A model generated the notes under the pieces. That model was not told the DNA's origin. It worked only from the letters and a program-made list of their open reading frames with translations, and made no database searches. From positions 3,327-37,259 of the forward strand of contig CAZHHV010000001.1 of assembly GCA_964532335.1 (NCBI GenBank): a stretch of 33,933 bases of DNA. The letters are read 5' to 3'. A program made the position numbers and the translations under genes. Origin of the DNA: an uncultured Nitrospiraceae bacterium. Lineage in GTDB: Bacteria; Nitrospirota; Thermodesulfovibrionia; Thermodesulfovibrionales; UBA1546. Positions 15,732 to 33,892 of this stretch are shown piece after piece (the stretch's first letter is position 1; each line of letters starts with the position of its first letter).

Positions 15732-15743
15732 TGGAAATACTTT

Positions 15744-17003
15744 TTATTCAAATTTACACTTCCCATCTTTTATATGTTCCTCAAACTCATTTCTGAAATG
15801 TTTTATGAAATTCTGGACAACAGATGCTGCTCCGTCTCCCAGCGGGCAGAATGTCTTGCCAAGCATATTCCCTGAAACAGAAAGCAAAAGTTCTATATCT
15901 CCTTCCACGCCTTCGCCGTTTTCTATCCTTTCAAGAATACTTCTCAGCCATCCTGTGCCTTCACGGCATGGTGTGCACTTTCCGCATGATTCATGCTCAA
16001 GGAATTTCAGCGCCCTATGGCATACTTTAACGAGACACACTGTTTCATCCATCACAATCACGGCGCCTGAGCCAAGCATGCTCCCGTGCTTTGGCATATT
16101 TACAAAATCCATAGGGCAGTCTATCTTATCCGCAGGAAGCACCGGCGTTGTAATCCCGCCCGGAATCACAGCCTTAAGATTCTTCCCTCCCTTAATTCCT
16201 CCGCAGTGTTTATAGATTATGTCCCGCAGGATTGTGCCCATAGGCAGTTCATAAACACCGGGTTTTTCAACATGACCGCTTACACAATAGAGTTTGGGGC
16301 CCGGGCAATCAGAACTTCCGATCTTTGAATATTCCTCACCGCCAATTTCTATAATAAGGGGAATGTTTGACAGCGTCTCTACGTTATTGACAACAGTAGG
16401 TTTTGCAAAAACGCCCACATTAACAGGGAACGGCGGCCTCGTCCTCGGCTGTCCCCTATCCCCCTCCAGTGATTCTATTAAAGCGGTCTCTTCGCCGCAT
16501 ATGTATGCGCCTGCGCCGCGATGAACAGCGAGATGAAACTTTATGCCCTTCCCTAAAATATCATCGCCGAGAAGATTGTTTTCATATGCCTGAGCGATTG
16601 CCCTATTCAGGATATGATATGCGCCCGGATACTCGCCTCTCAGGTATATGTATCCGTACTGTGCTCCGATTGCATAACCTGATATGACCATGCCCTCTAT
16701 CAGGAGATGGGGATTCTTCTCAAGTATAGGCCTGTCTTTGAATGTGCCCGGTTCTCCTTCATCTGCATTGCATAGGAGATATTTCGGGAATTTCGTATCA
16801 GCGCATGCAAAGGACCACTTCATTGCAACCGGGAACCCTGCTCCGCCCCTTCCCCTTAACCCTGCTTTTTTCACTATATCAGTTATGTCGTGCGGCTTGT
16901 CCTCAAACGCCTTCGGAAGACTCCTGTATCCGCCAATTTTTTTGTACTCGTTAATATCAGCTGAATTCGGGTTGTCTATGTTCTTTAAAAGTACTTTTTC
17001 CAT
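15744..17003 (-). CDS. nuoF: NADH-quinone oxidoreductase subunit F (FMN/NADH-binding)
   Basis: GRGGAGFPVAMKW, CNADEGEPGTFKDR and the N3 cluster motif ESCGKCTPCREG are present. Confidence 0.95.
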   Translation of the reverse strand: MEKVLLKNIDNPNSADINEYKKIGGYRSLPKAFEDKPHDITDIVKKAGLRGRGGAGFPVAMKWSFACADTKFPKYLLCNADEGEPGTFKDRPILEKNPHLLIEGMVISGYAIGAQYGYIYLRGEYPGAYHILNRAIAQAYENNLLGDDILGKGIKFHLAVHRGAGAYICGEETALIESLEGDRGQPRTRPPFPVNVGVFAKPTVVNNVETLSNIPLIIEIGGEEYSKIGSSDCPGPKLYCVSGHVEKPGVYELPMGTILRDIIYKHCGGIKGGKNLKAVIPGGITTPVLPADKIDCPMDFVNMPKHGSMLGSGAVIVMDETVCLVKVCHRALKFLEHESCGKCTPCREGTGWLRSILERIENGEGVEGDIELLLSVSGNMLGKTFCPLGDGAASVVQNFIKHFRNEFEEHIKDGKCKFE

Positions 17004-17046
17004 AACCTTAAACTTTTAATAGAAATTCATAAGTGAAACCACGGTT

Positions 17047-17107
17047 TGTCATTCCCGCTTGTCGGGAATCTTTCTTTAGGAAGGATTGCGGACAAGCCGC
17101 AATGACA
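17047..17107. repeat. GTCATTCC...GCAATGACA element, nuoF-nuoE junction (with outer imperfect IR 17029-17042 / 17124-17137)
   Basis: The first 31 nt are identical to the copy at 15668, and the right arm differs at 1 nt. The outer ataagtgaaaccac / gtggtattacttat pair is complementary at 12 of 14 positions. Confidence 0.85.
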
Positions 17108-17168
17108 GAACAAAAATGGTCATGTGGTATTACTTATGGTCTTATTAGTAACTTCTAACTCTTTCCTC

Positions 17169-17633
17169 CTATTTATATTTCGCTAATATTTCCTCTATAT
17201 ACTTTTCCGTAAGATTCTCATAAAAATCGTCATTCACAAGCATTGCAGGCGCTGTGCCGCATGCGCCTATGCATTCCATGATAACAAGTGAAAACCTTTT
17301 GTCAGGAGTTGTCCCTCCGGGTTCAAGCCCGTATTTATTCTTAAGAAAGTCTGAAAGCTTCTCTGCGCCGAGTATCATGCATGAGACATTTGTACATAGC
17401 TGTATAACATGCCGTCCCATAGGCTTATGCTTATACATTGCATAAAACGTCCCCACTCCTCTTGCAATCGCCTTTGGAACACCGAGAGCATCTGAAACAG
17501 CTTCATATGCATCAGCTCCGAGATGCCCGAATTCTCTCTGAGCAATATAAAGGGCAGGCAATAGCGCCGCGCTCGCATCAGGATACTTCTGTCGTATCTC
17601 ATTCAGTTCTTTTATGGCTGCTTCGCTAAACAT
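17169..17633 (-). CDS. nuoE: NADH-quinone oxidoreductase subunit E ([2Fe-2S])
   Basis: It has a thioredoxin-like fold with C-x4-C...C-x3-C (LCTNVSC...CIGACGTAP). Confidence 0.93.
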   Translation of the reverse strand: MFSEAAIKELNEIRQKYPDASAALLPALYIAQREFGHLGADAYEAVSDALGVPKAIARGVGTFYAMYKHKPMGRHVIQLCTNVSCMILGAEKLSDFLKNKYGLEPGGTTPDKRFSLVIMECIGACGTAPAMLVNDDFYENLTEKYIEEILAKYK

Positions 17634-20231: not shown

Positions 20232-20603
20232 TCAGTCCCATTTAAATGCCTCCTTTTTCCATGCATAAACATAGCCGACAAAAAGTATCACTATAAAAAT
20301 AACCATCTCAATAAATGCGTATAGTCCAATCCTGTCAAATACAACAGCCCAGGGATAAAGGAAAACAGCCTCAACGTCAAAGATAACAAAGAGCATGGCG
20401 ATAATATAGAATTTAACAGAAAATCTGTATCGCGGCTCTCCGACAGGCAGGTTGCCTGATTCATAAGGCATAAGTTTTTCAGGGTATGGCCTTTTCAGTC
20501 TGAGGAGTTCACCGATTAATAAGGCGCCCATTCCGAAGGCCGTTGCGACCATCAAAAATATAAGAACAGGCAAATAATCCGAAGGCAAATAAGTTCCGGG
20601 CAT
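20232..20603 (-). CDS. nuoA: NADH-quinone oxidoreductase subunit A
   Basis: It is 123 aa with 3 TM segments of the ND3 family (YESGNLPVGEPRYRFSVKFYIIAMLFVIFDVE) and is the first gene of the operon. Confidence 0.93.
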   Translation of the reverse strand: MPGTYLPSDYLPVLIFLMVATAFGMGALLIGELLRLKRPYPEKLMPYESGNLPVGEPRYRFSVKFYIIAMLFVIFDVEAVFLYPWAVVFDRIGLYAFIEMVIFIVILFVGYVYAWKKEAFKWD

Positions 20604-20752
20604 AGATTTATTTTTAATCTAAAATCTCAATAAGATAATTTAAGTTCTCAATCGTTGTCAAGGGGAAAAGCATTCAGGTTTCATAATCTCGATTTTACCT
20701 GTTATTTTAATTACTTGCATAAATTCTCAGAAATGGTATAAATTTCTTAGGT
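20604..20752. promoter_or_regulatory. Divergent control region between nuoA (minus) and the histidine kinase gene (plus)
   Basis: This is a 149 nt AT-rich spacer. Weak candidates are TTGCAT-16-TATAAA at 20715-20742 on plus, and TTGACA-18-TATCTT on minus (plus coordinates 20661-20632). Neither is strong. Confidence 0.3.
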
Positions 20753-21748
20753 ATGATTGTAAAAAAATCTCTGCATTCATTGACCGGGAAGCTTATCATT
20801 GCCATAGGCACTCTTATGGTAGTAGTGAGCGCTGTCTTCTGGTATTTCCTGATACAACGGCAGGAGAAAGAACTTCTTGGCAATGCTGTAAAGTACGGTT
20901 CATCCTTTCTTAACCATGTAAAAGAGAGCACTCGCCATGATATGCTTGCCTTCCAACCACCTCTGACCCAGCAGACTCTTGAAGTATTAGGCTCTGGAGA
21001 GGGAGTCATCAATGTCAGGATATTAGATGCCAAAGGCAGAATTGCTTATTCATCAATAAAAGAAAAGAAAGGAGTCTTGCTTGATAAAAATGAAATGCCA
21101 TGCATCTCATGCCATTCTAAACCTCTGGAAAGAAGAGAGATGCCATTATGGGCTGTTAACAGAGGAAAAGAAGGCTATAGGATTCTGACTATTGTGCGGC
21201 CGATTCATAATGAACCTGCATGCTATACCTCTTCCTGCCATATTCATCCTAAGGAACAGCAGATTCTTGGGTTTGTGAAGGCAGACCTTTCATTATCTAT
21301 TCTGGATGAAACACTGAAAAAACAGAAGATAGCCATTACAGCCTTTCTCATTGGTTTTATCTGTTTATTGTCAGTAGTCCTCTGTACGATTCTATGGAAG
21401 ATTGTGTCTGTCCCTTTAAGTATGCTTACTCATGGCATGAAACGAGTGGCTGCAGGCGAACTCGATTATGTAGTGGAGATAAAAACAAAGGATGAGATTG
21501 GAGATCTTGCAAGGGCGTTTAATGCGATGACCGCAGATCTTTCAATAGCTAAAAAAGAGCTGATTGAATGGGGTACTACGCTCGAAAAAAAGGTTGAGGA
21601 GAAGACTGAAGACATAAGAAGGGCACAATCACAGCTCATCCATTCAGAAAAACTCGCTTCATTGGGAAGGATGGCAGCAGGCGTTGCCCACGAAATAAAC
21701 AGCCCGCTTACAGGCATAGTCACCTTTAGTCATCTCTTGCTTAAGTGA
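20753..21748 (+). CDS. Sensor histidine kinase, N-terminal part (TM1, periplasmic CXXCH/CX4CH domain, TM2, HAMP, first DHp helix with H-box), ending at an in-frame TGA
   Basis: TM segments lie at about residues 12-34 and 192-216. CISCH is at 21101-21115 and CYTSSCH at 21221-21241. A HAMP-like region ([13 protein letters not shown]) and the H-box [17 protein letters not shown] are present. Confidence 0.8.
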
Positions 21749-22333
21749 TTTCCAGAAGGCAGTCAGGAAAAGGAAGACATAAATATAATTATTGAGCAGG
21801 CAAATAGATGCTCTAATATCATAAAGGGGCTTCTTGGATTTGCCAGGGCAACATCAACAGATAAGACCCTTACAAGCATAAATGATGTTGTGCTAAGCGC
21901 TCTAAATATGGTAAGGCATAAGGCAGACTTTTTCAATATAAAGATTGTCTTAAATCTTGATGAGACTCTGCCGCCTGTGATGGCAAATGCATCCCAGCTC
22001 CAACAGGTATTTTTAAATATGATTATAAATGCAGCAGATGTAATGGAAAGCGTAGGGATATTGACCATTGCCACACGAAGGCAGACGAAAGACGGAATGC
22101 CCTTTACAGAGGTAGAATTTAGAGATACAGGACAGGGCATATCTGAGGAGAACATGTCAAAGATATTTGAACCATTCTTTACAACAAAACCAGTCGGGAA
22201 AGGCACAGGTCTTGGTCTTGCTGTAAGCCATGGTATCATTCAGGACCATGGAGGCAAGATACTGGTGAGAAGCAAATTAGGAGAAGGAACAAGTTTCTTT
22301 GTAAGATTTCCAGCATATGAGGGTAAAGTATGA
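21749..22333 (+). CDS. Same histidine kinase, C-terminal part (second DHp helix plus HATPase_c with N, G1, G2 boxes), in the same frame directly after the TGA
   Basis: The frame (mod 3) is the same as that of 20753-21748. The translation continues FPEGSQEKEDINIIIEQANRCSNIIKGLLGFAR..., with N box QVFLNMIINAADV, G1 DTGQGI and G2 GKGTGLGLAVS. There is no credible independent start; the first in-frame start codon is a GTG at 21890. The stop overlaps the next gene (ATGA). Confidence 0.75.
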   Translation, partial: FPEGSQEKEDINIIIEQANRCSNIIKGLLGFARATSTDKTLTSINDVVLSALNMVRHKADFFNIKIVLNLDETLPPVMANASQLQQVFLNMIINAADVMESVGILTIATRRQTKDGMPFTEVEFRDTGQGISEENMSKIFEPFFTTKPVGKGTGLGLAVSHGIIQDHGGKILVRSKLGEGTSFFVRFPAYEGKV

Positions 22334-22707
22334 GCAAAGGAAAGATTCTTGTTATAGATGATGAAGACATAGTTCTTATAAGTTGTAAGAGGGCGCTTGA
22401 GCCTGAAGGTTATGATGTAAAAACAGTCAAAAGCGGAGTGGAAGGCTTGAAGACTGCTGAGAATGAGGATTTCGATATTGTGATGACAGACCTGAAGATG
22501 CCTGACGTGGATGGCATAGAGGTTTTACGGATTATCAAAGAAAGAAAACCTGCCGTTGAAGTTGTTATCATGACAGGCTATCAAACTGTAGAGACAGCTG
22601 TTAAGGCTATAAAGCTCGGCGCATTTGATTATATTGAAAAACCGTTCACCCCTGAACAGATAATCTCTGTGATAAAGAATGCCATTGCTCATGAATCAAA
22701 AATGTAA
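22330..22707 (+). CDS. Single-domain response regulator (CheY-like receiver)
   Basis: It has DD at the N-terminus, the phospho-acceptor motif MTDLKMPDVDG, MTGY and EKPFTPE, and no output domain. It is translationally coupled to the kinase. Confidence 0.9.
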   Translation: MSKGKILVIDDEDIVLISCKRALEPEGYDVKTVKSGVEGLKTAENEDFDIVMTDLKMPDVDGIEVLRIIKERKPAVEVVIMTGYQTVETAVKAIKLGAFDYIEKPFTPEQIISVIKNAIAHESKM

Positions 22708-22719
22708 CCTGAGGTATAG

Positions 22720-22800
22720 ATGAATAGGACTAAAGTCCTCGTGATAGATAATGAAGATATTGTAAGGGCAGGATATTGTGGATTTAGTTCAGAAAGTTAA
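22720..22800 (+). pseudogene. Decayed receiver-domain remnant (26 codons)
   Basis: It translates to MNRTKVLVIDNEDIVRAGYCGFSSES*. The first 15 residues parallel the N-termini of the three intact receivers (KILVIDDEDIV...), after which the frame terminates. Confidence 0.4.
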
Positions 22801-22832
22801 TGTAGTATGTAACGCAGAAAGGAGGCATAATC

Positions 22833-23606
22833 ATGGGGGAAAAAGGGAAAATATTGGTGCTGGATGATGACCCTGTTGTTACTCTGAGCTGTAAAAGGAT
22901 TTTAGGTGCAGAAGGTTACAACATCATAACAGTAGACAGAGGCGAAGACGCAATTAAAAAGGTCTCCAATGAGGAATTTGACCTCCTGATATCTGATATA
23001 AGACTGCCTGATGTTAGCGGAATTACTGTTTTAAAAGAATCAAAGATTATCCAGCCAAAACTTGACGTTGTCATAATTACAGGTTATCCCACATTAGAGG
23101 ATGCCAAGGAGTCTGTGAGGCTCGGCGCGCTCGAGTTTATCGAAAAGCCCTTTACTCCCGAGTTTATGGTAAATGTTGCCAAAAAAGTATTTGACAGCAG
23201 GGGATGGATATTAAGGAAGGCGTTTATAGACGATTTCAGAAATGATATCGTTTCACTGAGGGATACTGAAAACCCGGTGATATTTTATAAGGAAGGAACA
23301 TGGGCAAGACCGCTGAAAAATGAAATATGGGAGATCGGGTGCGATGTAAGATACTGGCTGTTAGCAGGCCAACTCACATATATTGAGCTTTCTGAAAAGA
23401 TTGATATGCTTATAGCAGGGGAGCCGTTTGGCAAAATCTTATCAAGCACAGGACAGACCGAGAACCTTATTTCACCAATAACAGGCAGGGTTAAAGAGAT
23501 CAACATTAATGCTAATACTGCTATGAGCGCACTTATAAGGGATAACCTCAGTGAGGGGTGGTTGCTCTGGCTTGCGAGGATTGAACTGATAACAACATTG
23601 CCTTAA
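22833..23606 (+). CDS. Response-regulator receiver fused to a glycine-cleavage-H-like (lipoyl-fold) domain lacking the lipoyl lysine
   Basis: The REC domain has DDD, ISDIRLPDVSG (D55), ITGY and EKPFTPE. The C-terminal roughly 105 aa, FYKEGTWARP..EIGCDVRYWLLAGQLTYIEL...ISPITGRVKEIN...SEGWLLWLA, align by eye to GcvH (YtkeHeW..vGit..aq..lGdivfveLp...sPvsGevvevN...GWl.ki). The SD is AGGAGG. Confidence 0.8.
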   Translation: MGEKGKILVLDDDPVVTLSCKRILGAEGYNIITVDRGEDAIKKVSNEEFDLLISDIRLPDVSGITVLKESKIIQPKLDVVIITGYPTLEDAKESVRLGALEFIEKPFTPEFMVNVAKKVFDSRGWILRKAFIDDFRNDIVSLRDTENPVIFYKEGTWARPLKNEIWEIGCDVRYWLLAGQLTYIELSEKIDMLIAGEPFGKILSSTGQTENLISPITGRVKEININANTAMSALIRDNLSEGWLLWLARIELITTLP

Positions 23607-23663
23607 CCCTGTTAGAGAACTTCCTCTAACGGGATAAAAATTTGACAAGCGAAGGAGAAACTT

Positions 23664-24497
23664 ATGTTTAAAATCTTAAAAAAGGAAGAGCTATCAGAAA
23701 GCATAACCCTATTTGATATTGATGCGAAAGATATTGCAAAAAAGGCAAAGCCAGGCAATTTTATTGTTCTTAAGATTCATGAGGAGGGAGAGAGGATACC
23801 TTTAACTATTGCTGATTTTGATAGGGAAAAAGGAACCATAACTACTGTATTCCAGAAGGTTGGAAAGTCAACCTATCACCTTGGAGCATTAAATGAAGGT
23901 GATTTTATAACTGATGTTATAGGCCCTCTCGGTATTCCTTCCCATATAGAAAATTTTGGAAAGGTTGTCTGTATAGGTGGTGGAGTTGGAATTGCGCCTA
24001 TTTACCCGATAACAAAGGCATTAAAAGAGGCAGGTAATATAATAATTTCTATCATAGGCGCAAGGACAAAGTCACTCCTTTTCTGGGAAGAAAAAATGCG
24101 CAAGGTATCAGATGAACTAATTATTACGACAGATGATGGCTCTTACGGCAGAAAGGCAGTGGTAACTATTCCATTGGAAGAACTTCTGAAGGAGGGCAAT
24201 ATAAATTTAGTAGTCGCTATCGGCCCTGCTATTATGATGAAATTTGCCTGTAAGACAACAGAAAAATACAATGTAAAAACTATAGTTAGTTTAAATTCAA
24301 TCATGATTGATGCAACAGGGATGTGCGGCGGCTGTAGAGTAGGGGTAGGAGGGGAGACAAAGTTTTGCTGTGTTGACGGCCCTGAATTTGATGGACATAA
24401 GGTTGATTTTGATCTGCTTATGGAAAGACAGAAGATGTATCTTGATGAGGAAAGGTTAGCCATGCAAAGGTATAGAGAAAAAATGGGGGTGAAATGA
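23664..24497 (+). CDS. nfnA: NADH-dependent reduced ferredoxin:NADP+ oxidoreductase subunit A (SudB/PyrK-like FAD/[2Fe-2S] protein)
   Basis: It is near-collinear with the Thermotoga NfnA sequence as I recall it (MFKIL.K.EL...KPGNF..L.IHE.GERIPLT.AD.D.EKGTIT...GMCG.CRV.VGGE.KF.CVDGPEFD.H.VD). The SD is AAGGAG. Confidence 0.85.
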   Translation: MFKILKKEELSESITLFDIDAKDIAKKAKPGNFIVLKIHEEGERIPLTIADFDREKGTITTVFQKVGKSTYHLGALNEGDFITDVIGPLGIPSHIENFGKVVCIGGGVGIAPIYPITKALKEAGNIIISIIGARTKSLLFWEEKMRKVSDELIITTDDGSYGRKAVVTIPLEELLKEGNINLVVAIGPAIMMKFACKTTEKYNVKTIVSLNSIMIDATGMCGGCRVGVGGETKFCCVDGPEFDGHKVDFDLLMERQKMYLDEERLAMQRYREKMGVK

Positions 24498-25945
24498 GCA
24501 TGGAGGAAAAAGAGGAGAAAAAAGAGGAAAAAAAACCAAAAAAGAGAGTAAAGATGAGGGAACAGGACCCTCTGGTGAGGGCGAGGAATTTTGATGAGGT
24601 TCCTTATGGATACACCCCGGATGATGCAGTTGAGGAGGCATCAAGATGCCTGCAGTGCAAGAAACCTGCCTGTAGAGAAGGGTGCCCTGTAGAGATAGAT
24701 ATACCGCCATTTATACAGCTTATCACCAAGCATGATTTCATTGGCGCTGCAAGAAATATCCGTGAAAAAAACAGCCTTCCTGCTGTTTGTGGAAGGGTAT
24801 GTCCACAGGAGATTCAATGTGAAGCCTTATGTATCTTAGGGAAAAAGGCAGAGTCTGTTGCCATAGGCAACCTTGAGCGATTTGCAGCAGACTATGACAG
24901 GGTTCATGGAAAGTTTGAGATGCCTGAGATGGCAGAGCCAAATGGCAGAAAGGTTGCTATTATCGGCTCAGGTCCTGCCGGATTGACAGCAGCAGGCGAC
25001 CTCAGAAAAAAGGGTTATGAGGTTGCTGTTTTTGAGGCGCTCCATGAACTGGGTGGTGTTCTTGTCTATGGCATCCCTGAGTTCAGACTTCCCAAGAAGA
25101 TTGTCAAGGCTGAAATATCATATCTTGAAAGGATAGGGGTAAGGTTTCAAACTAATGCAGTGATTGGAAAGCTCTATACAGTTGATGAACTATTGAACAG
25201 CCACGGATATGATGCCTGCTATATTGGAATAGGCGCAGGGTTGCCTATGTTTATGGGAATACCAGGAGAAAACCTAAACGGTATTTACTCTGCGAATGAA
25301 TTTTTAACAAGGGCAAATCTAATGAAGGCATATCTTTTCCCTGAGTATGATACACCGATAAAGAGAGGCAAAAAGGTTGCTGTATTCGGCGGCGGCAATG
25401 TCGCTATGGATGCTGCAAGGGTGGCCCTCAGACTTGGTGCAGATAAGGTCTATCTTATATACAGGCGTTCTGAGGCTGAGATGCCGGCAAGAAAGGCAGA
25501 AGTTCATCATGCACATGAGGAGGGAATAGAATTCTTGCTATTAACAAATCCAACAAGATTTATTGATGACGGCAAGGGGAATGTCTGTGGGGTTGAATGT
25601 ATAAAGATGGAATTAGGAGAGCCTGACGAATCCGGCAGAAGGAAACCGATTCCTATTAAAGGCAGTGAATTTCAGATTGAGATAGATGTTGCAATACCTG
25701 CACTCGGAACAAGGGCAAATCCAATTTTAACAAAAACCGTGCCTGATTTAAAATTAAACAAGAGGGGGTATATTGTAGCTGAAGAGGAAACAGGCATGAC
25801 CTCAAAACCAGGCGTCTTTGCAGGCGGAGATATAGTTACAGGCTCTGCAACGGTTATCCTGGCTATGGGCGCAGGAAGAAAGGCAGGAAGGGCGATTAAT
25901 GAATATATAAAATGGAAATACTGGAACTTTAGCATGAGTAAATGA
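24494..25945 (+). CDS. nfnB: NADH-dependent reduced ferredoxin:NADP+ oxidoreductase subunit B (GltD/SudA-like)
   Basis: The N-terminal motif NFDEVPYGYTPDDAVEEASRCLQCKKPAC..GCPV is present, along with a 2x[4Fe-4S] region and the dinucleotide folds KVAIIGSGPAGL and VAVFGGGNVAMD. It overlaps the nfnA stop (ATGA). Confidence 0.85.
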   Translation: MSMEEKEEKKEEKKPKKRVKMREQDPLVRARNFDEVPYGYTPDDAVEEASRCLQCKKPACREGCPVEIDIPPFIQLITKHDFIGAARNIREKNSLPAVCGRVCPQEIQCEALCILGKKAESVAIGNLERFAADYDRVHGKFEMPEMAEPNGRKVAIIGSGPAGLTAAGDLRKKGYEVAVFEALHELGGVLVYGIPEFRLPKKIVKAEISYLERIGVRFQTNAVIGKLYTVDELLNSHGYDACYIGIGAGLPMFMGIPGENLNGIYSANEFLTRANLMKAYLFPEYDTPIKRGKKVAVFGGGNVAMDAARVALRLGADKVYLIYRRSEAEMPARKAEVHHAHEEGIEFLLLTNPTRFIDDGKGNVCGVECIKMELGEPDESGRRKPIPIKGSEFQIEIDVAIPALGTRANPILTKTVPDLKLNKRGYIVAEEETGMTSKPGVFAGGDIVTGSATVILAMGAGRKAGRAINEYIKWKYWNFSMSK

Positions 25946-25975
25946 GTAATACAACTTTCGCAGATGATTTTTGGT

Positions 25976-26049
25976 TGTCATTCCGTGCTTGACACGGAAT
26001 CCAGTTCCACAATATATCCCTCTGGATTCCCGCTTTCGCGGGAATGACA
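25976..26049. repeat. GTCATTCC...GGAATGACA double-hairpin element downstream of nfnB (nested inside a perfect 12 bp outer IR, 25952-25963 / 26069-26080)
   Basis: The sequence is tgtcattccGTGcttgaCACggaatccag, then a spacer, then ctggattccCGCtttcGCGggaatgaca. The outer pair is caactttcgcag / ctgcgaaagttg. Confidence 0.85.
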
Positions 26050-26119
26050 GAAGGCGTTTTTAAAAGTGCTGCGAAAGTTGACTTATTGACTCAATTAAAA
26101 GAAGGGAGGAGTTATTTTT

Positions 26120-26989
26120 ATGGCAAATGCTACCAAAATTCTTGTTGTGGACGATGAAGCTATAGTAATAAGAAGCGCTGAAAGGGTTCTTAAGGCTGAA
26201 GGTTATAATGTTGAAGGGGTTCTTAGTGGAAGAGAGGCTATGCTCAAGATGGAACAGAGCAGTTATGACCTTGTCTTAACAGACCTTAAGATGCCAGAGG
26301 TGGATGGAATCACATTGATAAGATGGATGCGGAAATTCCGACCTTCTATCGGTATTGTAATCATTACAGGCTATCCATCACAGGAGACAATTAAAGAAGC
26401 CCTTGAATTAGGCATTATTGATTATGTCCCAAAACCCTTTACACCGGCAGTTCTGACAGATGTAACACACAGGGCATTAGAATGGCTGAAAGGAAAGGCA
26501 TACATTGAAGAAAAGCCTAAAGAGGAATTCCCTCCTTCTATGCTCAATGAACTGGACAGAGTCATAAAAGAACATAAAAATAAAGCCGGCAGCCTCATAC
26601 CTGTGCTTCAGCGGGCTCAGGAGATTGTAGGCTACCTTCCATCGTTTATACAGAAGCGAGTTGCAAAGGGACTGAATATTCCTGCAGCAGAGGTGCATAG
26701 CGTTGTCTCATTCTATTCATTCTTTACTATGAAACCCAGAGGGGAACACCTCATCAGGCTCTGTCTCGGGACTGCCTGTTATGCAAAAAAATCAGAGGCA
26801 ATTCTGGAGAAATTCATGTCAGAATTAGGTGTAAATGTTGAGGAGGTTACAGAGGATAAAAAGTTTTCACTTGAGACTGTCCGATGCCTTGGCGCATGCG
26901 GTCTCGCACCAGTGGCAGTAGTAGACGAAGATACCTATGGTTTACTGCATCCAAAGAAGGTAAGAGAGGTTATTAATGTATATAGATAA
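26120..26989 (+). CDS. Response-regulator receiver fused to a NuoE/HydC-like thioredoxin-fold [2Fe-2S] subunit
   Basis: The REC domain spans residues 1-125 (DD11-12, D55 in LTDLKMPEVDG, ITGY, K105 in PKPFTP). Residues 140-289 are NuoE-like (LIPVLQRAQE..GYLP) with C215-x4-C220-x35-C256-x3-C260. The SD is GGGAGGA. Confidence 0.85.
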   Translation: MANATKILVVDDEAIVIRSAERVLKAEGYNVEGVLSGREAMLKMEQSSYDLVLTDLKMPEVDGITLIRWMRKFRPSIGIVIITGYPSQETIKEALELGIIDYVPKPFTPAVLTDVTHRALEWLKGKAYIEEKPKEEFPPSMLNELDRVIKEHKNKAGSLIPVLQRAQEIVGYLPSFIQKRVAKGLNIPAAEVHSVVSFYSFFTMKPRGEHLIRLCLGTACYAKKSEAILEKFMSELGVNVEEVTEDKKFSLETVRCLGACGLAPVAVVDEDTYGLLHPKKVREVINVYR

Positions 26990-27003
26990 AGAGGAGGTAA
27001 ACT

Positions 27004-27387
27004 ATGCCAAGACTAACTATAGATGATTTAAGAAAGATTAAAGAACAACATAAGGCAACCTTTACCTTAAGGGAAGGCGGCTACAGGGCAAAAGTTACCG
27101 TCCATATGGGGACATGCGGCATAGCTGCCGGCGCAAGAAATATAATGACCGTTTTAATGGACGAAATAGCACAGGTCAAGGTTGAAGATGTGATTGTTAC
27201 TACATCAGGGTGTGCGGGACTTTGCGCCCGTGAACCCATGGCCACAGTAGAGATAGTAAATAATCCTCCGGTCAGATACATTGACCTGACAGAGGAAAAG
27301 ATTAAAGAGATATTTAAGGAACATATTATGGGTGGTAATGCAGTAGAAAAATATGCATTGGCTATTGGAAGTGAGACGACATATTAA
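27004..27387 (+). CDS. HndB-like small thioredoxin-fold [2Fe-2S] ferredoxin
   Basis: It is 127 aa with VTVHMGTCGIAAGA...TSGCAGLCAREP, the pattern seen in HndB / HydB-N-terminal-type domains. The SD is AGGAGG. Confidence 0.8.
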   Translation: MPRLTIDDLRKIKEQHKATFTLREGGYRAKVTVHMGTCGIAAGARNIMTVLMDEIAQVKVEDVIVTTSGCAGLCAREPMATVEIVNNPPVRYIDLTEEKIKEIFKEHIMGGNAVEKYALAIGSETTY

Positions 27388-27399
27388 CCCTTCCTCTTT

Positions 27400-27420
27400 C
27401 CTCCCCTTACTAAGGGGAGG
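27400..27420. repeat. CCTCCCCTTA-C-TAAGGGGAGG palindrome between the HndB-like and NuoF-GltD genes
   Basis: It is a perfect 10+1+10 palindrome embedded in a C/T-rich then G/A-rich context (27388-27440). It has the same CCCCTT...AAGGGG core as the element inside the gene at 3721-3762. Confidence 0.7.
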
Positions 27421-27446
27421 ATGGGTGGGGTAGAGGAGAGAAATTG

Positions 27447-30400
27447 ATGGAAAAGTTTCGTGCAAATGTGATGCTCTGTGCAGGGACAGGTTGTATTGCG
27501 AGCGGAACTATGAAGGTTAAGTCCGCCCTCGTGGAAGAATTGAGAAAGAGGGGGCTTGAAAATGAGATACAGGTTATCATGACAGGCTGTAATGGCTTCT
27601 GTGCACAAGGACCTATTGTGTCTGTCTACCCTGATAATATCTTTTACCAGGCATTAAAGGTAGAGGATGTCCCTCATCTGGTAGAAGAACATTTCTTAAA
27701 GGGCAGACCTGTAAAGAGATTGATGTATCAGGAACCAGACAAGAAAATAACTGTTCCAGCTATGGGTGAGATACCTTTCTTTAAACATCAGGTGCTTCGT
27801 GTCCTGCGAAATAAAGGACTCATTGATCCTGAAAAGATTGAAGAATACATTGCCAGGGATGGTTATCTTGCTGCTGCAAAGGCGCTCACTGAGATGACTC
27901 CTGAAGAAATAATAAAAGTTGTAAAAGACTCGGGTGTAAGGGGCAGAGGCGGCGCAGGGTTTCCGACGGGTTTAAAATGGGAATTTGCCTCAAAGTCAAA
28001 GGCAGACCAGAAATTTATGCTCTGCAATGGCGATGAGGGGGACCCTGGTGCGTTCATGGACAGGTCTGTTATGGAGTCTGACCCGCATTCAGTAATTGAA
28101 GGTATGATTATAGGCGCTAGTGCCATAGGCGCAAGCAAAGGCGTTATCTATGTAAGGGCGGAATATCCTCTTGCTGTAAAACGTCTTCAACTTGCTATTG
28201 ATCAGTGTTATGATGCAGGACTGCTCGGGAAAAACATCCTTGGCTCAGATTTTAATTTTGACCTCAGCATATACCTTGGTGCAGGCGCCTTTGTCTGTGG
28301 CGAAGAAACAGCCCTCATGCGTTCTATTGAAGGAAAACGCGGGATGCCAATACCAAGGCCGCCCTTCCCTGCACAAAAAGGGCTCTGGGATAAACCTTCA
28401 GTCCTGAATAATGTTGAAACCTTAGCCCAGATTGCTCCGATAATATTAAATGGCGCTGAATGGTATAAAAGCCTCGGGACCGAGAAAAGCACAGGAACAA
28501 AGGTATTTGCCCTTACAGGCGCTATAAGCAATGTAGGTCTGGTTGAAGTTCCTATGGGAATTCCCCTGAGGACAATTATATATGATATCGGAGGCGGGAT
28601 AAGAAAGGGGAAATTCAAGGCTGTACAGCTTGGAGGTCCGTCAGGCGGCTGTATTCCTGAAAGCCTTCTCGACACCCCTGTCACGTATGAAGATATTGTA
28701 GCAACAGGCGCCATTGTCGGCTCTGGCGGCATGGTCGTTCTGGATGACAGCAACTGCATGGTCAGTTTAGCTAGATTCTTCCTCGGCTTTACAACAGAGG
28801 AATCCTGCGGAAAGTGTCCTCCGTGCAGGGTAGGGACAAAGATTTTATTAGATATGCTTACGGATATCACAGAAGGCAGGGGAAAAGAGACTGATGTCGA
28901 GACGCTAGAGGACCTCAGTAGAGATATTATTGCCACATCTCTATGCGGCCTTGGACAGACAGCCCCGAATCCTATCCTTACTACAATTAAATATTTCAAA
29001 GATGAGTATGAAACTCATATCAAATATAAGAGATGTGAGGCAATGGTCTGCAAGGAGATAATATCATCTCCCTGTCAGCATACCTGCCCTATTGGCACAG
29101 AAGTGCCTGTCTATGCAGCCTTAATCGCCCAAAGACGCTTTGATGAGGCAGTTCAGGTTATTAGAAAAGACAATCCACTGGCAAGTGTCTGCGGCCGTGT
29201 CTGTACTCACCCCTGCGAATCCAATTGCAAATCAGGAGAGGCGGGAAAACCCCTTGCAGTAAGGGCACTGAAGCGATTTGCTACTGATTACGGGCTGCAA
29301 ACAGGCTACAAATTACCGATTAAACGCAAAGAGCCAAAAAATAAAAAGGTTGCCATTATAGGCTCAGGGCCAGGAGGGCTCACAGCAGGTTGCTTCCTTG
29401 CCATAGAAGGTTATGATGTTACAATCTTTGAGGCAAAGTCTGTTTTAGGTGGTATGCTGAGAGTAGCCATACCTACATATCGTTTGCCAAGAGAGCTGCT
29501 GGATGCTGATATTGACGCCATTAAAGAGGCAGGGGTTAAATTCCAAACAAATACAGCATTGGGGAAAGAAATCTCTATTAACAGCCTTTTCAATGATGGG
29601 TATGAAGCTATTTTTATCTCAGTCGGCGCCCATAAGCCGATGGACCTGGGCATCCCTGGTGAGGATAGCGAAGGGGTCATAGGCTCTTTGAAATTTCTTG
29701 AGGCAGTAAATCTGGGCAAAGATATAAAGGTTGGCAAAAGGATTGGTATTATCGGTGGGGGGAATGCTGCAGTTGACGCTGCCAGGGCTGCACATCGCCT
29801 TCCAAATACAGAGAAGGTTACACTTATCTACAGAAGGACAAGGGCAGAGATGCCGGCATTTAAAGAGGAAGTGGATGCTGCAATTGAAGAGGGTATTGAT
29901 ATACAGTTCCTGAGCGCACCAACAAGGGTATTAACACAAAATGGAAAACTTGCCGGCATTGAGGCTATCCGTATGGAATTAGGAGAACCAGATGCAAGCG
30001 GAAGAAGAAAACCTGTCCCTATTAGCGGTTCTGAATTTATCATAGAATTAGATACATTAATAAGGGCAATCGGGGAAGCTCCTGATATTACATTCCTTGG
30101 AGGTCAGGGACTTGAGATTTCTAAAAGGAATACCCTTGTAGTTGACCCTGAGACTTTAGCCACTAAAAGAAAAGGGGTCTTTGCCGGTGGAGATGCGGTG
30201 ACCGGTCCAAAAACCGTTATACATGCTATTGCAGCCGGTAAGTTAGCCGCTGAATCCATTGATAAATATCTCAGGGGGGAAAGCATAGAAAGGGAATACA
30301 ATGTAACCCGACCATCCATGTATATTGAACCGGTTGAGCTGACCGATGAGGAAATAGAGAGCGCTGCCCGGCCTGAGATGTCCCATCTGCCTATAAAAGA

Positions 30401-30587
30401 TAGGGTTAAGAACTTTAAAGAGGTGGAATTAGGTTTCACTGAAGAGACGGCAGTTAAAGAGGCAAGGAGATGCCTAAGATGTGAATTAGGAACGATGGAA
30501 GGCACACAAGCAATGCAGGAAATGCGAGAAAAGAAAAAAATCGAAAAAGAAAAATTACAGAAGGCAGGAGGAGTCAAAAATGATTGA
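27447..30587 (+). CDS. Fusion protein: N-terminal [2Fe-2S] domain plus NuoF/HydB-like FMN/NADH module plus GltD/NfnB-like Fe-S/FAD/NAD(P)H module
   Basis: Counting from the TTG at 27444: CAGTGC...GCNGFCAQGP lies in residues 10-57. GRGGAGFPTGLKW, CNGDEGDPGAF and ESCGKCPPCRVG lie in residues 165-462. From about residue 530 the GltD-like region begins, with CQHTCPIG...VCGRVCTHPCESNC, KVAIIGSGPGGL, IGIIGGGNAAVD and GVFAGGDAV. The ATG at 27447 has the SD GAGGAGAG upstream. Confidence 0.85.
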   Translation: MEKFRANVMLCAGTGCIASGTMKVKSALVEELRKRGLENEIQVIMTGCNGFCAQGPIVSVYPDNIFYQALKVEDVPHLVEEHFLKGRPVKRLMYQEPDKKITVPAMGEIPFFKHQVLRVLRNKGLIDPEKIEEYIARDGYLAAAKALTEMTPEEIIKVVKDSGVRGRGGAGFPTGLKWEFASKSKADQKFMLCNGDEGDPGAFMDRSVMESDPHSVIEGMIIGASAIGASKGVIYVRAEYPLAVKRLQLAIDQCYDAGLLGKNILGSDFNFDLSIYLGAGAFVCGEETALMRSIEGKRGMPIPRPPFPAQKGLWDKPSVLNNVETLAQIAPIILNGAEWYKSLGTEKSTGTKVFALTGAISNVGLVEVPMGIPLRTIIYDIGGGIRKGKFKAVQLGGPSGGCIPESLLDTPVTYEDIVATGAIVGSGGMVVLDDSNCMVSLARFFLGFTTEESCGKCPPCRVGTKILLDMLTDITEGRGKETDVETLEDLSRDIIATSLCGLGQTAPNPILTTIKYFKDEYETHIKYKRCEAMVCKEIISSPCQHTCPIGTEVPVYAALIAQRRFDEAVQVIRKDNPLASVCGRVCTHPCESNCKSGEAGKPLAVRALKRFATDYGLQTGYKLPIKRKEPKNKKVAIIGSGPGGLTAGCFLAIEGYDVTIFEAKSVLGGMLRVAIPTYRLPRELLDADIDAIKEAGVKFQTNTALGKEISINSLFNDGYEAIFISVGAHKPMDLGIPGEDSEGVIGSLKFLEAVNLGKDIKVGKRIGIIGGGNAAVDAARAAHRLPNTEKVTLIYRRTRAEMPAFKEEVDAAIEEGIDIQFLSAPTRVLTQNGKLAGIEAIRMELGEPDASGRRKPVPISGSEFIIELDTLIRAIGEAPDITFLGGQGLEISKRNTLVVDPETLATKRKGVFAGGDAVTGPKTVIHAIAAGKLAAESIDKYLRGESIEREYNVTRPSMYIEPVELTDEEIESAARPEMSHLPIKDRVKNFKEVELGFTEETAVKEARRCLRCELGTMEGTQAMQEMREKKKIEKEKLQKAGGVKND

Positions 30588-33042
30588 GCTTACAATCAAT
30601 GACAAAAAAATAACTGCAGAGGAAGGCTCCACAATCCTCCAAACCGCAACAAAAAATGGTATTAAGATACCAAATCTATGCTTTGACAAAAGACTCAGGC
30701 CTTATGGCGGATGCAGGCTTTGTGTTGTTGAGGTAGAGAAACAGCCGAGGCTTTTTGCTGCATGCTCAACCCCTGTTGCTCCTGGAATGGTTGTTAAAAC
30801 CGATACTCCTAAACTCAGAAAAGCCCGCCAGACAGTGCTCGAACTTCTTCTTGTGCATCATCCGCTGGACTGCCCAATATGCGATAAGGCAGGCGAATGC
30901 GACCTTCAGGACCTCGCATATGAATTTGGCAAACCTGAAGGACGTTTCATAAGACACAGAAAAGAAACCCCGCCTGATGTCAGAGGACCACTAATAGAGC
31001 TTACTTCAAACAGATGCATTCTATGTGGCAAATGTGTACGAATCTGTAGTGAATATCAAGGAAGAGGGGCATTGGGACTGATAGGAAGGGGATTTCCTAC
31101 TGTTGTTCAGCCCGCATTCGGTGAAATCCTTGAATGCGACTACTGCGGCCAGTGTATTGATATATGCCCGACAGGCGCGCTTTTGAGTAAGCCGTTCAAG
31201 TTTCAGGCACGTGCATGGTTTCTCGATGAAAAAGACACAATCTGTCCTTTCTGCGGATGCGGCTGCACTCTTACTTTGGGTATAAGAGAAGGGAAGATAT
31301 TAAGATCAAGAGGCCAGGAAGACAATGGAAGGAGCGAAGGCAACCTGTGCGGCAGGGGCAGGTTTGGATTTGATTACATATACAATGAGAGCCGTCTTAA
31401 AACGCCTTTGATAAGAAAAGAAGGTTCACTGGTTCCTGCAACATGGGATGAGGCATTATCATATATAAGCGATAGCCTGAATTTTATTATCAATTCTTAC
31501 GGAAAAACATCAGTAGGCGCTCTCGGCTCTCACAGATGTACGAATGAAGACAACTTTATGCTGAAAAAGTTCATGATGAACGTTGTTGGTTCAAACAACT
31601 TTGACTCTGCTGCCGCATTCGGATATTCAAAGGTTCAGCAGGCTCTCGATAAGGCATTCGGATTAAAGACCCATCCGATTAACCTGAAATCACCATTGGG
31701 CAAGGAAGTTATTCTGATAATTGAATCGGATATCAGCATTACACATCCTGTATTCGGACTTAATATCCTTCAGGCAAAAAGAGAAGGCTCAAGGCTTATT
31801 GTCGCTGATTCAAGGGAGACAAAACTCACAAGGCATAGTACGACTCAACTAAAAATGAGACAGGGCGCTTCTGTTGCGCTGCTCAATGGAATAATGAAGA
31901 TAATAATAGATAAGGGTCTTTTCAACAGGGAGATAGTTTCCAAGACCCCGGGGTTTTCAGAATTCGAAAAGGGCCTTAATGATTACATCTCTGAAGATGT
32001 CTCAAGGATTACAGGGATTTCCGTAGAGGAACTCGTATCTGCTGCAGAGACTATTGCAAGGGCTAAAAGCAGAATGATCTCATTCACAATCAATTCGACA
32101 GAGAACACAAAAGGAGCAGATCTGGTTTTTGCAGCTTCGAATCTTGTAATCCTCTTAGGCGATGAGACAGATACATTGCAGATCCCTGCTGAATATGCAA
32201 ACACATTTGGAGCTTACAAAATGGGAATAAGGCCGGATGCAGATGGAAAGAATCTATTTGATATGCTTTATGAATCGGGCTCACTCCATGCCCTTTATAT
32301 AATGGGCGAGGATCCTGTTTCAGCATTTCCTTACAATTCAAAGATTATAAGGACACTTAAATCGCTCGAACTGCTTGTTGTTCAGGATATTGCCCTGACA
32401 GAGACAGCCAAGCTTGCGCATGTTGTGCTTCCTGCATCAAGCTGGGCAGAGAAAGACGGCACATTCATTAATGCCGAGGGGGTTGCGCAGACATTGAAAA
32501 AGGCAATAGACGCCCCCGGCCAATCACTGCCAGACTGGCAGATCCTGAGAAATCTCTCGTTATCAATGGGGACTGATATTGGGATAAGGAGTATAGAAGA
32601 CATCTCAAGGGAGATAAACTCGTCAATCGTCAATCGTCAATCGTCAATCGTCAATCGTCAATCGTTTAATCCTGTGTTATATACACGCGGAGAAGAGCCT
32701 GATACAGAATATCCATTGTCACTTGTCACAAGAGATATCCTTCAGCATTCAGGAACGATGACAACACGCTCAAAGGCGCTTGACCTTGTTGTTCCCGAAC
32801 CTTTTCTTGAGATTAATGATGAGGATGCCAAAAAATTCGGCATATCTGACAACAGCCATGTTAAGGTTTCATCAAGGAGAGGCACAGTATATCTGAAGGC
32901 AAAGGTTTCTGATGTTATACCTTCTGGAACTGTTTTCACTTCAGTTCATTTTCCTCACGGCCGTGTTAATGCGCTCACAAATCTCTCAGAAAATGGCACA
33001 GCAACCCCAGACGCTGTAAGAGTAGAAAGGGTTATAATATAA
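30580..33042 (+). CDS. NuoG-like / formate-dehydrogenase-alpha-like Fe-S molybdopterin-fold subunit lacking the catalytic Cys/Sec-His
   Basis: It has an N-terminal [2Fe-2S] region (CRLCVVEV), HPLDCPICDKAGEC, 2x[4Fe-4S] motifs, and the motif CPFCGCGCTL...LCGRGRFG. NNFDSAAAFGYS occupies the position of NNvD.CARvUH in FDH. The SD is AGGAGG and the start overlaps the upstream stop. Confidence 0.85.
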   Translation: MIELTINDKKITAEEGSTILQTATKNGIKIPNLCFDKRLRPYGGCRLCVVEVEKQPRLFAACSTPVAPGMVVKTDTPKLRKARQTVLELLLVHHPLDCPICDKAGECDLQDLAYEFGKPEGRFIRHRKETPPDVRGPLIELTSNRCILCGKCVRICSEYQGRGALGLIGRGFPTVVQPAFGEILECDYCGQCIDICPTGALLSKPFKFQARAWFLDEKDTICPFCGCGCTLTLGIREGKILRSRGQEDNGRSEGNLCGRGRFGFDYIYNESRLKTPLIRKEGSLVPATWDEALSYISDSLNFIINSYGKTSVGALGSHRCTNEDNFMLKKFMMNVVGSNNFDSAAAFGYSKVQQALDKAFGLKTHPINLKSPLGKEVILIIESDISITHPVFGLNILQAKREGSRLIVADSRETKLTRHSTTQLKMRQGASVALLNGIMKIIIDKGLFNREIVSKTPGFSEFEKGLNDYISEDVSRITGISVEELVSAAETIARAKSRMISFTINSTENTKGADLVFAASNLVILLGDETDTLQIPAEYANTFGAYKMGIRPDADGKNLFDMLYESGSLHALYIMGEDPVSAFPYNSKIIRTLKSLELLVVQDIALTETAKLAHVVLPASSWAEKDGTFINAEGVAQTLKKAIDAPGQSLPDWQILRNLSLSMGTDIGIRSIEDISREINSSIVNRQSSIVNRQSFNPVLYTRGEEPDTEYPLSLVTRDILQHSGTMTTRSKALDLVVPEPFLEINDEDAKKFGISDNSHVKVSSRRGTVYLKAKVSDVIPSGTVFTSVHFPHGRVNALTNLSENGTATPDAVRVERVII
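32621..32665 (+). repeat. Perfect heptanucleotide tandem repeat (CGTCAAT)x6 plus CGT inside the NuoG-like gene
   Basis: Read directly from the sequence: six exact 7 nt units followed by cgt. It translates as SSIVNRQSSIVNRQS, a 7 aa periodicity arising from 21 nt. Confidence 0.95.
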
Positions 33043-33062: not shown

Positions 33063-33401
33063 ATGACATTAAACGAAATCAAAAGAATACTCAACGCAGT
33101 GGCGCTCTCAAAGATAGAAGATATGAATCTCAATATTGTAAGGGCTTACTGTGCCGATCTCATGAGTGATGTGCTTGCATTTTCTATAACAAATTCCCTT
33201 TTGATAACACATTTAACAAATACACAGGTAATTCGCACTGCTGAGATTGCGGATGTCAAAACAATAGTATTTGTTCAGAGTAAAAGGCCTGATATAGAAA
33301 CAATCGCATTAGCAGACACAAAGAATATCCCTCTGCTTGTAACCGATCTTTCGATGCATGAGACATGCGGGAAACTTTACGAGAAAGGACTAAGGAGTTA
33401 G
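33063..33401 (+). CDS. DRTGG-domain small regulatory protein
   Basis: It is 112 aa. DLMSDVLAF...LLITHLTNTQVIRTAEIADVKTIVFVQSKRP...NIPLLVTDLSMHETCGKLY resembles the DRTGG domain as found in HydABC-type gene clusters (from memory). Confidence 0.65.
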   Translation: MTLNEIKRILNAVALSKIEDMNLNIVRAYCADLMSDVLAFSITNSLLITHLTNTQVIRTAEIADVKTIVFVQSKRPDIETIALADTKNIPLLVTDLSMHETCGKLYEKGLRS

Positions 33402-33415
33402 CTTAATACTAAAAA

Positions 33416-33892
33416 ATGAGTAACAAGGTCATTGAAGGAGTTTTTTTTCTTACGGGCAAGGATTTCTCTAATGCGGGCGCTGCCTCAAGCAATTTGAAGG
33501 GAATATTAGAAGGCATGAGTGTTCAGCCAGATATTATAAGAAGGGCTGCTATAGCAGCATTTGAGGCAGAGATGAACACGATTATATACTCTGTGGCAGG
33601 AATGATGAATTATTGCATAACTCCTGAAATAATACGAGTTGTCCTTAAGGATGTCGGTCAGGGCATCGAAAATATTGAACTTGCCATGAAAGAGGGATAT
33701 TCGACAGCCCCGGACTACATAAGAGAAATGGGGTTTGGCTCAGGTATGGGCCTTCCGAATATCAAAAGGAATGCGGATGAGATGAACATCAATTCCACGG
33801 TCGGTGAAGGCACAACGCTTGAATTTATTATATACCTGAACAAGAAAGAAGAATTAAAAGGAGCGCGCTATGAAACTGCAGGAAATTGTTAA
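33416..33892 (+). CDS. Small HATPase_c protein (RsbW/SpoIIAB-like anti-sigma kinase / histidine-kinase-like ATPase)
   Basis: N-box-like EAEMN, a G1-like DVGQGI and a G2-like GFGSGMGLPNIKRNAD...GTTLEF are present. There is no DHp or H-box. Confidence 0.7.
   Translation: MSNKVIEGVFFLTGKDFSNAGAASSNLKGILEGMSVQPDIIRRAAIAAFEAEMNTIIYSVAGMMNYCITPEIIRVVLKDVGQGIENIELAMKEGYSTAPDYIREMGFGSGMGLPNIKRNADEMNINSTVGEGTTLEFIIYLNKKEELKGARYETAGNC

Follow-up and report, generated by a model that had tools for sequence, protein, structure and literature searches.

An uncharacterised response regulator with a lysine-less H-protein fold, a candidate docking subunit beside NuoEFG-like genes in Thermodesulfovibrionia

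Among described proteins with the fold of the glycine cleavage H-protein (GcvH), LbpA binds lipoate as part of the Hdr-like (sHdr) system of sulfur oxidation; its lysine is strictly conserved in all 95 aligned sequences, and two cysteines are conserved in most of them, some archaeal sequences excepted (Cao et al. 2018, PMC6067878). Electron-bifurcating complexes of the HydABC/Bfu type, with their NuoEFG-like subunits, have DRTGG/HATPase/PHP regulators encoded in their operons (Schut et al. 2022, PMC9304861), and the terms 'receiver', 'kinase' and 'glycine cleavage' do not occur in the paper on the Bfu family. Here, we analysed a stretch of 33,933 nucleotides (nt) from an uncultured Nitrospiraceae bacterium (GenBank assembly GCA_964532335.1, contig CAZHHV010000001.1, positions 3,327 to 37,259; the window), in which a gene at 22833..23606 encodes a receiver (REC) domain fused to a GcvH-like domain. 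Positions are those of the window, and features lie on its plus strand unless stated otherwise. As predicted from its sequence, this protein, REC-GcvH, is a non-DNA-binding response regulator. We propose, giving the idea about an even chance, that it is a phospho-gated, non-catalytic docking or regulatory subunit, which in Thermodesulfovibrionia acts on the adjacent NuoEFG-like complex.

The open reading frame (ORF) of REC-GcvH runs unbroken from ATG to TAA, with an AGGAGG ribosome-binding site 5' of the start, and specifies a protein of 257 amino acids (aa) to which Pfam assigned both Response_reg and GCV_H. The receiver (residues 7-114; 22851..23174; Pfam 84.6 bits) has kept all catalytic and switch residues: in the alignment with CheY, D11, D12, D55, T83, F102 and K105 correspond to D12, D13, D57, T87, Y106 and K109, respectively, which makes Asp55 (codon at 22995..22997) the predicted phospho-acceptor. 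Two AlphaFold models were used. Model 1, built from a 28-sequence alignment, had a predicted local distance difference test score (pLDDT) of 61.8 and an unusable receiver, and served for the Foldseek search with the GcvH fold; model 2, built from 82 sequences, reached a mean pLDDT of 85.4, with both domains confident. The modelled receiver has a (beta/alpha)5 CheY-like fold, matching the CheY-like structure 3crn with a template modelling (TM) score of 0.93 and a root-mean-square deviation of 1.4 Å (Foldseek), and by alignment and model REC-GcvH is a true receiver-superfamily protein (PF00072), with a receiver resembling the FixJ/NtrC type. It is followed by a long linker helix, an extended alpha5 (residues 109-133; 23157..23231; assigned by DSSP on the 82-sequence model and by alignments), in which the segment RGWILR(K/Q)AFID(D/E)FR is near-invariant in the family alignments. 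When model 2 was searched against PDB with Foldseek, receiver matches dominated, RssB and PorX were among the structural matches to receiver plus linker, and no entry matched the receiver and the GcvH-like domain together (query-normalised TM of at most 0.48). REC-GcvH thus shares with CheY, PorX and the ClpXP adaptor RssB an intact receiver, the lack of a DNA-binding output and a predicted action through protein binding, but differs from them in that its output is a lipoyl-fold domain.

For this output domain (residues 148-257; 23274..23603), the Pfam match to GCV_H (PF01597, residues 152-247) was marginal, with 26.2 bits against a gathering cutoff of 22.2 (E 8.3e-6), and the fold was therefore tested by three further methods. 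A phmmer search of PDB sequences with the C-terminal 118 residues returned H-proteins only, the best being Mycobacterium tuberculosis GcvH (3hgb, E 5.7e-6). By hhalign, a profile of seven family members aligned with a profile of nine canonical H-proteins over 98 columns, with a probability of 99.0 % and an E value of 7e-18, pairing YKEGTW with EHEW, IGCD with VGIT, LTYIEL with MVFVDL, SPITGRVKEIN with APVSGEIVAVN and GWLLWLA with GWIFKIK. In Foldseek, model 1 against PDB gave H-proteins as top matches (2ka7, 3klr, 1htp and 9c19, i.e., TM0212 and the bovine, pea and human proteins), with E values of about 2e-6 and target-normalised TM scores of 0.60-0.65 over about 105 columns. The first-pass annotation, which had read a receiver and a GcvH fold from the letters alone and had aligned the hallmark segments by eye, was borne out by Pfam, phmmer, hhalign and Foldseek alike; every pairing it had named was recovered by hhalign, and the fold that it had warned might be missed by profile or structure searches was recovered by both hhalign and Foldseek. 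The domain is acidic, with an isoelectric point (pI) of 4.9, and in the alignment it lacks the C-terminal helix of canonical GcvH.

The hairpin tip that occupies the place of the lipoylated lysine reads Thr206-Gly207-Gln208 (23448..23456). MAFFT and phmmer aligned the lysine with Gly207 (23451-23453) and hhalign with Thr206, the family hairpin being one residue longer than that of GcvH. Across 86 loci, the column of Gly207 holds glycine in 85 and serine in one; the column before it holds G, S, T, E, R or A and never lysine, which appears only in the column after it, in 4 of the 86. The sole nearby lysine of the window protein, K201, is not conserved among relatives. In more distant REC-GcvH proteins, a lysine stands at the corresponding position in 1 of 60. 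The first reading had given SSTGQTE in place of the E-S-V-K lipoylation motif of GcvH; the multiple alignment agrees that the lysine is absent, with G or S in all 86 loci, and the segment itself stands, but it spans 23442-23462, about 3 nt away from where it had been placed. As these alignments read, lysine loss is a fixed property of the family and not a one-off, and REC-GcvH proteins cannot be lipoyl carriers.

Despite this loss, the domain is strongly conserved. The motifs NPVIFYKEGTWARP, WEIGCD.RYW and SEGWLLWLA do not vary within the seven-sequence family alignment, and wider relatives have them in highly conserved form. The median ratio of nonsynonymous to synonymous substitution rates (dN/dS; pairwise against the window) was about 0.10, a value that indicates purifying selection and is approximate, with dS near saturation (median 2.1). 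A decaying pseudo-domain was ruled out by this ratio. A domain conserved in this way without its lipoyl-lysine suggests an output that is neither catalytic nor a carrier.

Compared with GcvH (PF01597), the domain has the same hybrid barrel-sandwich fold and hallmark segments, but it differs by the missing lysine and C-terminal helix, the longer hairpin and the fused receiver. It differs also by its surroundings: the gene adjoins a NuoEFG-like module and not gcvT or gcvP, and neither the genes scanned in the window nor those called in the related loci L001-L005 include gcvT, gcvP or lpd. Since the fold is there and the lysine is not, REC-GcvH should not be annotated as GcvH. GcvH-L of Streptococcus pyogenes and Staphylococcus aureus (PDB 5a35), which was among the Foldseek matches, is likewise an H-protein paralogue outside the glycine cleavage system, in a regulatory context; it is lipoylated and ADP-ribosylated, whereas the REC-GcvH domain lacks the lysine and is fused to a receiver. 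With LbpA the likeness lies in a GcvH fold coupled to Hdr-type Fe-S/flavin complexes, as distant REC-GcvH proteins are fused to HdrC near HdrB (see below). However, the family lacks both the lipoylated lysine and the cysteine pair of LbpA, and LbpA has no receiver; judged by these residues, REC-GcvH is not an LbpA. Beside the close family, Pfam calls showed no hdr genes in the flanks of the window and L001-L005, where no dedicated hdr search was made.

We then asked which genes accompany REC-GcvH in its close relatives. A protein search gave 29 homologues, labelled Nitrospirota, and a scan with one genome per species placed the close family in no fewer than 138 species genomes; almost all of these bear the label Nitrospirae/Nitrospirota or Thermodesulfovibrionia, Ca. 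Sulfobium among them. The window proteins were mapped by tblastn onto 85 related loci, and the sequences with at least 1.5 kb downstream of the gene, window included, made up 75 informative loci. The next gene was a fusion of a receiver to a NuoE-like protein (REC-NuoE) in 63 of these (median gap about 52 nt; L004, whose GcvH-like match is split by a frameshift, is counted), followed in order by a 127-aa 2Fe-2S protein, NuoF and a NuoG-like subunit. In eight loci, among them the window, nfnA(B) lay next to the gene, and REC-NuoE then followed in seven of the eight. Four loci deviated, one of which (L053) is rearranged yet adjoins NuoEFG-like genes. The position directly upstream of nfnAB, to which the first-pass annotation had drawn attention, thus holds in the window, where nfnA starts at 23664, but not as a rule of the family, and nfnAB was rejected as the conserved partner on this tally. 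The conserved partner is most likely, on gene order, the soluble NuoE/small 2Fe-2S/NuoF/NuoG-like module.

In the window, REC-NuoE (26120..26989; Pfam Response_reg and 2Fe-2S_thioredx) is a HydC/BfuC-like 2Fe-2S subunit with an N-terminal receiver. This fusion is kept across the Thermodesulfovibrionia loci and, as an architecture, implies a direct phospho-control of a redox-complex subunit. It is followed by the 127-aa thioredoxin-like 2Fe-2S protein (27004..27387), which is conserved in the loci, has weak Pfam and NCBIfam matches to 2Fe-2S ferredoxins and presumably resembles HydD. The next gene (27444..30587, TTG start; Pfam, NCBIfam) encodes a 1047-aa NuoF-like flavoprotein with an N-terminal 2Fe-2S domain, fused to a GltD/NfnB-like module. 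Within the close family, this NuoF-GltD fusion was found in the window, L005 and L022 only, always together with nfnAB; elsewhere NuoF has 607-646 aa, with N-terminal 2Fe-2S and C-terminal 2x[4Fe-4S] domains, which is the HydB/BfuB architecture. The 820-aa NuoG-like subunit (30580..33042) has a degenerate molybdopterin domain. It scored 473.2 bits with the NCBIfam model for NuoG (cutoff 470) and 472 bits with that for Fdh-alpha, far below the cutoff of 666, and its translation reads AAFGY in place of ARV(U/C)H, the active-site motif of formate dehydrogenase (FdhF). A formate dehydrogenase was rejected on these grounds, and the subunit is probably non-catalytic. The subunit set of NuoE-like, small 2Fe-2S, NuoF and NuoG-like proteins matches that of the HydABC/Bfu complexes (PMC9304861). 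The locus differs from these in the receiver on NuoE, in the REC-GcvH gene and in a NuoG-like subunit without a catalytic site, and bifurcation here is putative. As a separate observation, a second, complete nuoEFG set lies in a divergent nuo operon (12948-17633, minus strand).

Beyond the close family, the nearest relatives were further REC plus GCV_H proteins. A HMMER profile search of 1.84 billion representative proteins gave 67 matches at E <=0.001, and many more turned up in a follow-up search, from WOR-3, Deltaproteobacteria, Planctomycetota, Eisenbacteria and Cloacimonas, many of the distant proteins extending into an HdrC-like dicluster domain. We examined 32 distant loci, in which hdr genes were sought by tblastn. 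Nine of them (L086, L089, L090, L093-L098) encode a free REC-GcvH and then a REC-GcvH-HdrC fusion (e.g., L086 9001-10329), and HdrB (CCG) comes next in eight of the nine, L090 having no recognisable HdrB. Downstream lie either NuoE, a 127-aa protein and NuoF-GltD with DRTGG/PHP/HATPase genes, or GltD/HdrA/MvhD-type or other pyridine-nucleotide-disulfide oxidoreductase genes; the fusions resembling NuoF-GltD were seen in the WOR-3-type loci L086 and L089. Across phyla, the HdrC loci repeatedly pair a free REC-GcvH with a receiver that is fused to a redox subunit, and the HdrC fusion provides Rosetta-stone evidence for a linkage between REC-GcvH and redox complexes. In L089, the region just upstream of the REC-GcvH-HdrC cluster (469-3019) has genes for a lipoate-protein ligase (LplA-B_cat), for a protein of the CMD family and for a GCV_H protein that stands alone; by these matches, a genuine lipoyl carrier may coexist there with the lysine-less regulators.

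Other distant members have different neighbours. In a recurring layout, genes for a histidine kinase with a Cache domain, an acetyl-CoA hydrolase/transferase and REC-GcvH are followed by one for a giant HEAT+WD40 protein (about 1050-1130 aa); the start of this last gene abuts the stop codon of REC-GcvH or overlaps with it (translationally coupled). Pfam confirmed this layout in L088, L101 (4103-11744) and L112, and the WD40 protein of L111. Multihaem cytochrome clusters lie beside REC-GcvH in L087 and L091, and the remaining distant loci are short contigs or have neighbours outside the reference set. An exclusive tie of the wider class to bifurcating modules was rejected, with many members beside HEAT/WD40 proteins, cytochromes or unrecognised neighbours. 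These varied contexts argue for the GcvH-like domain as a protein-docking output of general use, with the operon determining which partner it meets.

Signal input may come from the genes directly 5' of REC-GcvH, which encode a cognate-looking HAMP histidine kinase (20753..22333; Pfam HAMP, HisKA and HATPase_c) and a stand-alone receiver (22330..22707; Pfam 112.8 bits), a layout shared by most loci. The start of the receiver gene overlaps the kinase stop codon, and its product is 46.8 % identical to the receiver of REC-GcvH. The extracytoplasmic loop of the kinase contains CxxCH (21101-21115) and Cx4CH (21221-21241) motifs. The Cys and His of both are kept in 52 homologues while the intervening residues vary, which is the signature of covalent haem c and points to a periplasmic redox sensor; by its motifs, the kinase is likely such a haem-c sensor. 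Between the stand-alone receiver and REC-GcvH, a 26-codon ORF (22720-22797), beginning MNRTKVLVIDNEDIVR, matches the first 16 residues of extra stand-alone receivers, whose genes sit at this place in many related loci; from this match it looks like a deletion relic.

From these elements we suggest the following mechanism. The kinase would sense the extracytoplasmic redox state through covalent haem c and phosphorylate Asp55 of the REC-GcvH receiver. Coupled to the receiver by the conserved alpha5-linker helix, the lipoate-less H-protein fold would serve as a protein-protein docking module, and phosphorylation would alter the geometry of the helix or of a dimer, and with it the binding of the GcvH-like domain. 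The predicted target is the co-encoded soluble NuoE/small 2Fe-2S/NuoF/NuoG-like (HydABC/Bfu-type) NAD(H)-ferredoxin complex, to which REC-GcvH might be recruited either by REC-REC pairing with REC-NuoE or via the hairpin surface, and the outcome would be a post-translational gating of electron flow. Binding, its site, the direction of regulation and the REC-REC pairing are all points that we infer. In a broader version, which we regard as possible but doubtful, REC-GcvH would be a widespread and so far unrecognised class of response regulators whose lipoyl-less H-protein domain, under the control of receiver phosphorylation, plugs into or bridges Bfu/HydABC- and Hdr-type electron-bifurcating complexes and gates them post-translationally, in Thermodesulfovibrionia together with REC-NuoE and under the periplasmic haem-c kinase.

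Several observations weigh against these proposals. Gene adjacency is equally compatible with an action of REC-GcvH on the DRTGG/HATPase/PHP regulators or on the kinase. In 23 of the 32 distant loci, several of them short contigs, a histidine kinase and REC-GcvH form a pair with no recognisable redox module, and judging from these neighbourhoods a bifurcating complex is not the partner in every case. The near-saturated dS also softens the case for selection on the domain. In the 82-sequence model, linker residues 121-130 have a pLDDT of only 56, and the whole-model predicted TM score of 0.51 leaves the domain orientation uncertain, so that the model does not fix how the receiver and the GcvH-like domain lie relative to each other. 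Finally, the kinase gene of the window has an in-frame TGA at 21746-21748, in the HisKA region, after which the frame is open; the position is occupied by K (33), R (17), Q (1) or H (1) in the 52 homologous kinases (tblastn). The TGA reflects a nonsense mutation or else an error of the assembly, and, accordingly, the pathway may be broken in the window or the assembly may be wrong.

REC-GcvH might instead work inside the signalling network, as a phosphate sink or connector on the kinase, or as a partner of the DRTGG/HATPase/PHP regulators in a manner resembling partner switching. Three paralogous receivers (REC-only, REC-GcvH and REC-NuoE) do occur at one kinase locus, REC-GcvH directly follows the 183-aa HATPase gene of the regulatory set in 17 loci, and many distant members are bare pairs of histidine kinase and REC-GcvH, some of them in tandem. 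However, a pure phosphate sink needs no highly conserved 110-aa output domain, the HdrC fusion argues for a direct attachment to an enzyme complex, and the regulatory set lies upstream, lies downstream or is undetected depending on the locus, whereas the adjacency of REC-NuoE is nearly constant; we consider such a role unlikely. The first-pass annotation favoured NfnB or the GltD module, which belong to the Lpd superfamily of flavoproteins, as the partner on which a lysine-less H-protein mimic would dock in a phospho-dependent manner. Canonical GcvH docks on Lpd, nfnAB is found directly 3' of the gene and NuoF is fused to GltD in the window, and GltD-type modules are present in the distant L086, L089 and L093-L098. 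Yet nfnAB adjoins the gene in 8 of the 75 loci and NuoF-GltD is confined to three sequences, while the flanks of about 84 % of the close-family loci (63/75) had no detected GltD/NfnB-type flavoprotein although the domain is nearly invariant, so that Lpd-like docking cannot be the general mechanism. Other members adjoin WD40 scaffolds or cytochromes, and GcvH and Lpd recognise each other mainly through the lipoyl arm, a part that REC-GcvH does not have. The general idea of a phospho-controlled docking or regulatory partner remains consistent with the evidence, but these specific partners do not, and we judge them improbable.

It is quite improbable that the GcvH-like domain binds a small molecule or a non-lipoate cofactor, integrating a metabolite signal with phosphorylation, for which the cleft that houses the lipoamide arm in H-proteins or the lysine of an IHK(L/F)W motif in distant members might offer a site. 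Four residues before SP(V/I)SG, the distant class keeps a conserved His-Lys, aromatic-rich motifs are conserved in the close family, and genes for a lipoate ligase and a stand-alone GcvH lie close by in L089; but the close family has N, D or E and no conserved lysine at the His-Lys position, Cys169, the only conserved cysteine, gives way to F, L or V in some relatives, and neither Pfam nor NCBIfam gave a match to a ligand-binding family. In lipoyl domains, moreover, moving the target lysine out of the hairpin tip abolishes lipoylation. A transcription factor with a DNA-binding C-terminal domain is very improbable: most response regulators are transcription factors and the receiver is of a FixJ/NtrC-like type, but Pfam found no helix-turn-helix, winged-helix or other DNA-binding signature in the output domain, which is a beta-sandwich H-protein fold with its low pI, and in distant loci a separate NtrC-type regulator stands beside REC-GcvH. 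A genuine lipoyl carrier under phospho-control, H-protein or LbpA-like, is effectively refuted by sequence. The GcvH fold is present, and GcvH-like LbpA proteins work with Hdr-like complexes, but the lipoyl-lysine is missing in 86 of 86 loci, the strictly conserved lysine of LbpA and the two cysteines of most LbpA proteins (PMC6067878) have no counterpart here, and the window genes examined include no gcvT, gcvP or lipoate ligase.

On the plus strand of the window, the full gene order is HAMP histidine kinase, REC, REC-GcvH, NfnA, NfnB, REC-NuoE, the 127-aa 2Fe-2S protein, NuoF-GltD, the NuoG-like subunit, a DRTGG-like protein and HATPase, the cluster being divergent from the complete nuo operon. 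The nfnA-like and nfnB-like genes (23664..25945; NCBIfam, Pfam) represent the minority state, an insertion between REC-GcvH and REC-NuoE. The DRTGG-like (112 aa) and HATPase_c (158 aa) genes (33063..33892), identified by Pfam and by their positions in the loci, are part of the DRTGG/HATPase/PHP regulatory set that accompanies the cluster. A promoter and terminator scan of 20500-27500 gave the same counts as shuffled sequence and was uninformative on operon structure. The window also contains 11 copies of GGAATGACA, against 0.32 expected by chance, all of them intergenic (6469, 8163, 11069, 11138, 11786, 11853, 15668, 17047, 17716, 25976 and 26041). Several copies form inverted pairs 57-60 nt apart, as in the nested palindromes at 25947-26085, and by this arrangement the element is a predicted member of a family of palindromes like the repetitive extragenic palindromic (REP) elements.

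No description of REC-GcvH or REC-NuoE was found in the open-access full-text literature. The first-pass annotation had not recognised the architecture as described, and with regard to papers this agrees with our search; in sequence databases, on the other hand, the architecture is abundant and has been annotated automatically, the JGI label, for instance, being 'glycine cleavage system H lipoate-binding protein/CheY-like chemotaxis protein'. REC-GcvH is thus uncharacterised rather than unseen. Several databases label these proteins 'glycine cleavage system protein H', and this annotation should be corrected, as they are predicted to be unable to act as lipoyl carriers.

To our knowledge, the control of flavin-based electron-bifurcating and NuoEFG-type modules is largely unknown beyond transcription. 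The locus described here offers a testable system, with a kinase carrying haem-c motifs, a NuoE fused to a receiver and a second regulator whose H-protein fold has been repurposed. Should the GcvH-like domain dock on the complex, it would be the first lipoyl-fold domain to serve as the output of a response regulator, and two-component phosphorylation would act directly on such an enzyme; if, in addition, the gating of bifurcation holds, this would amount to a direct two-component switch on electron bifurcation. Each functional statement is one that we infer, and as such REC-GcvH is a lead into the post-translational control of NuoEFG-, Bfu- and Hdr-type redox enzymes.

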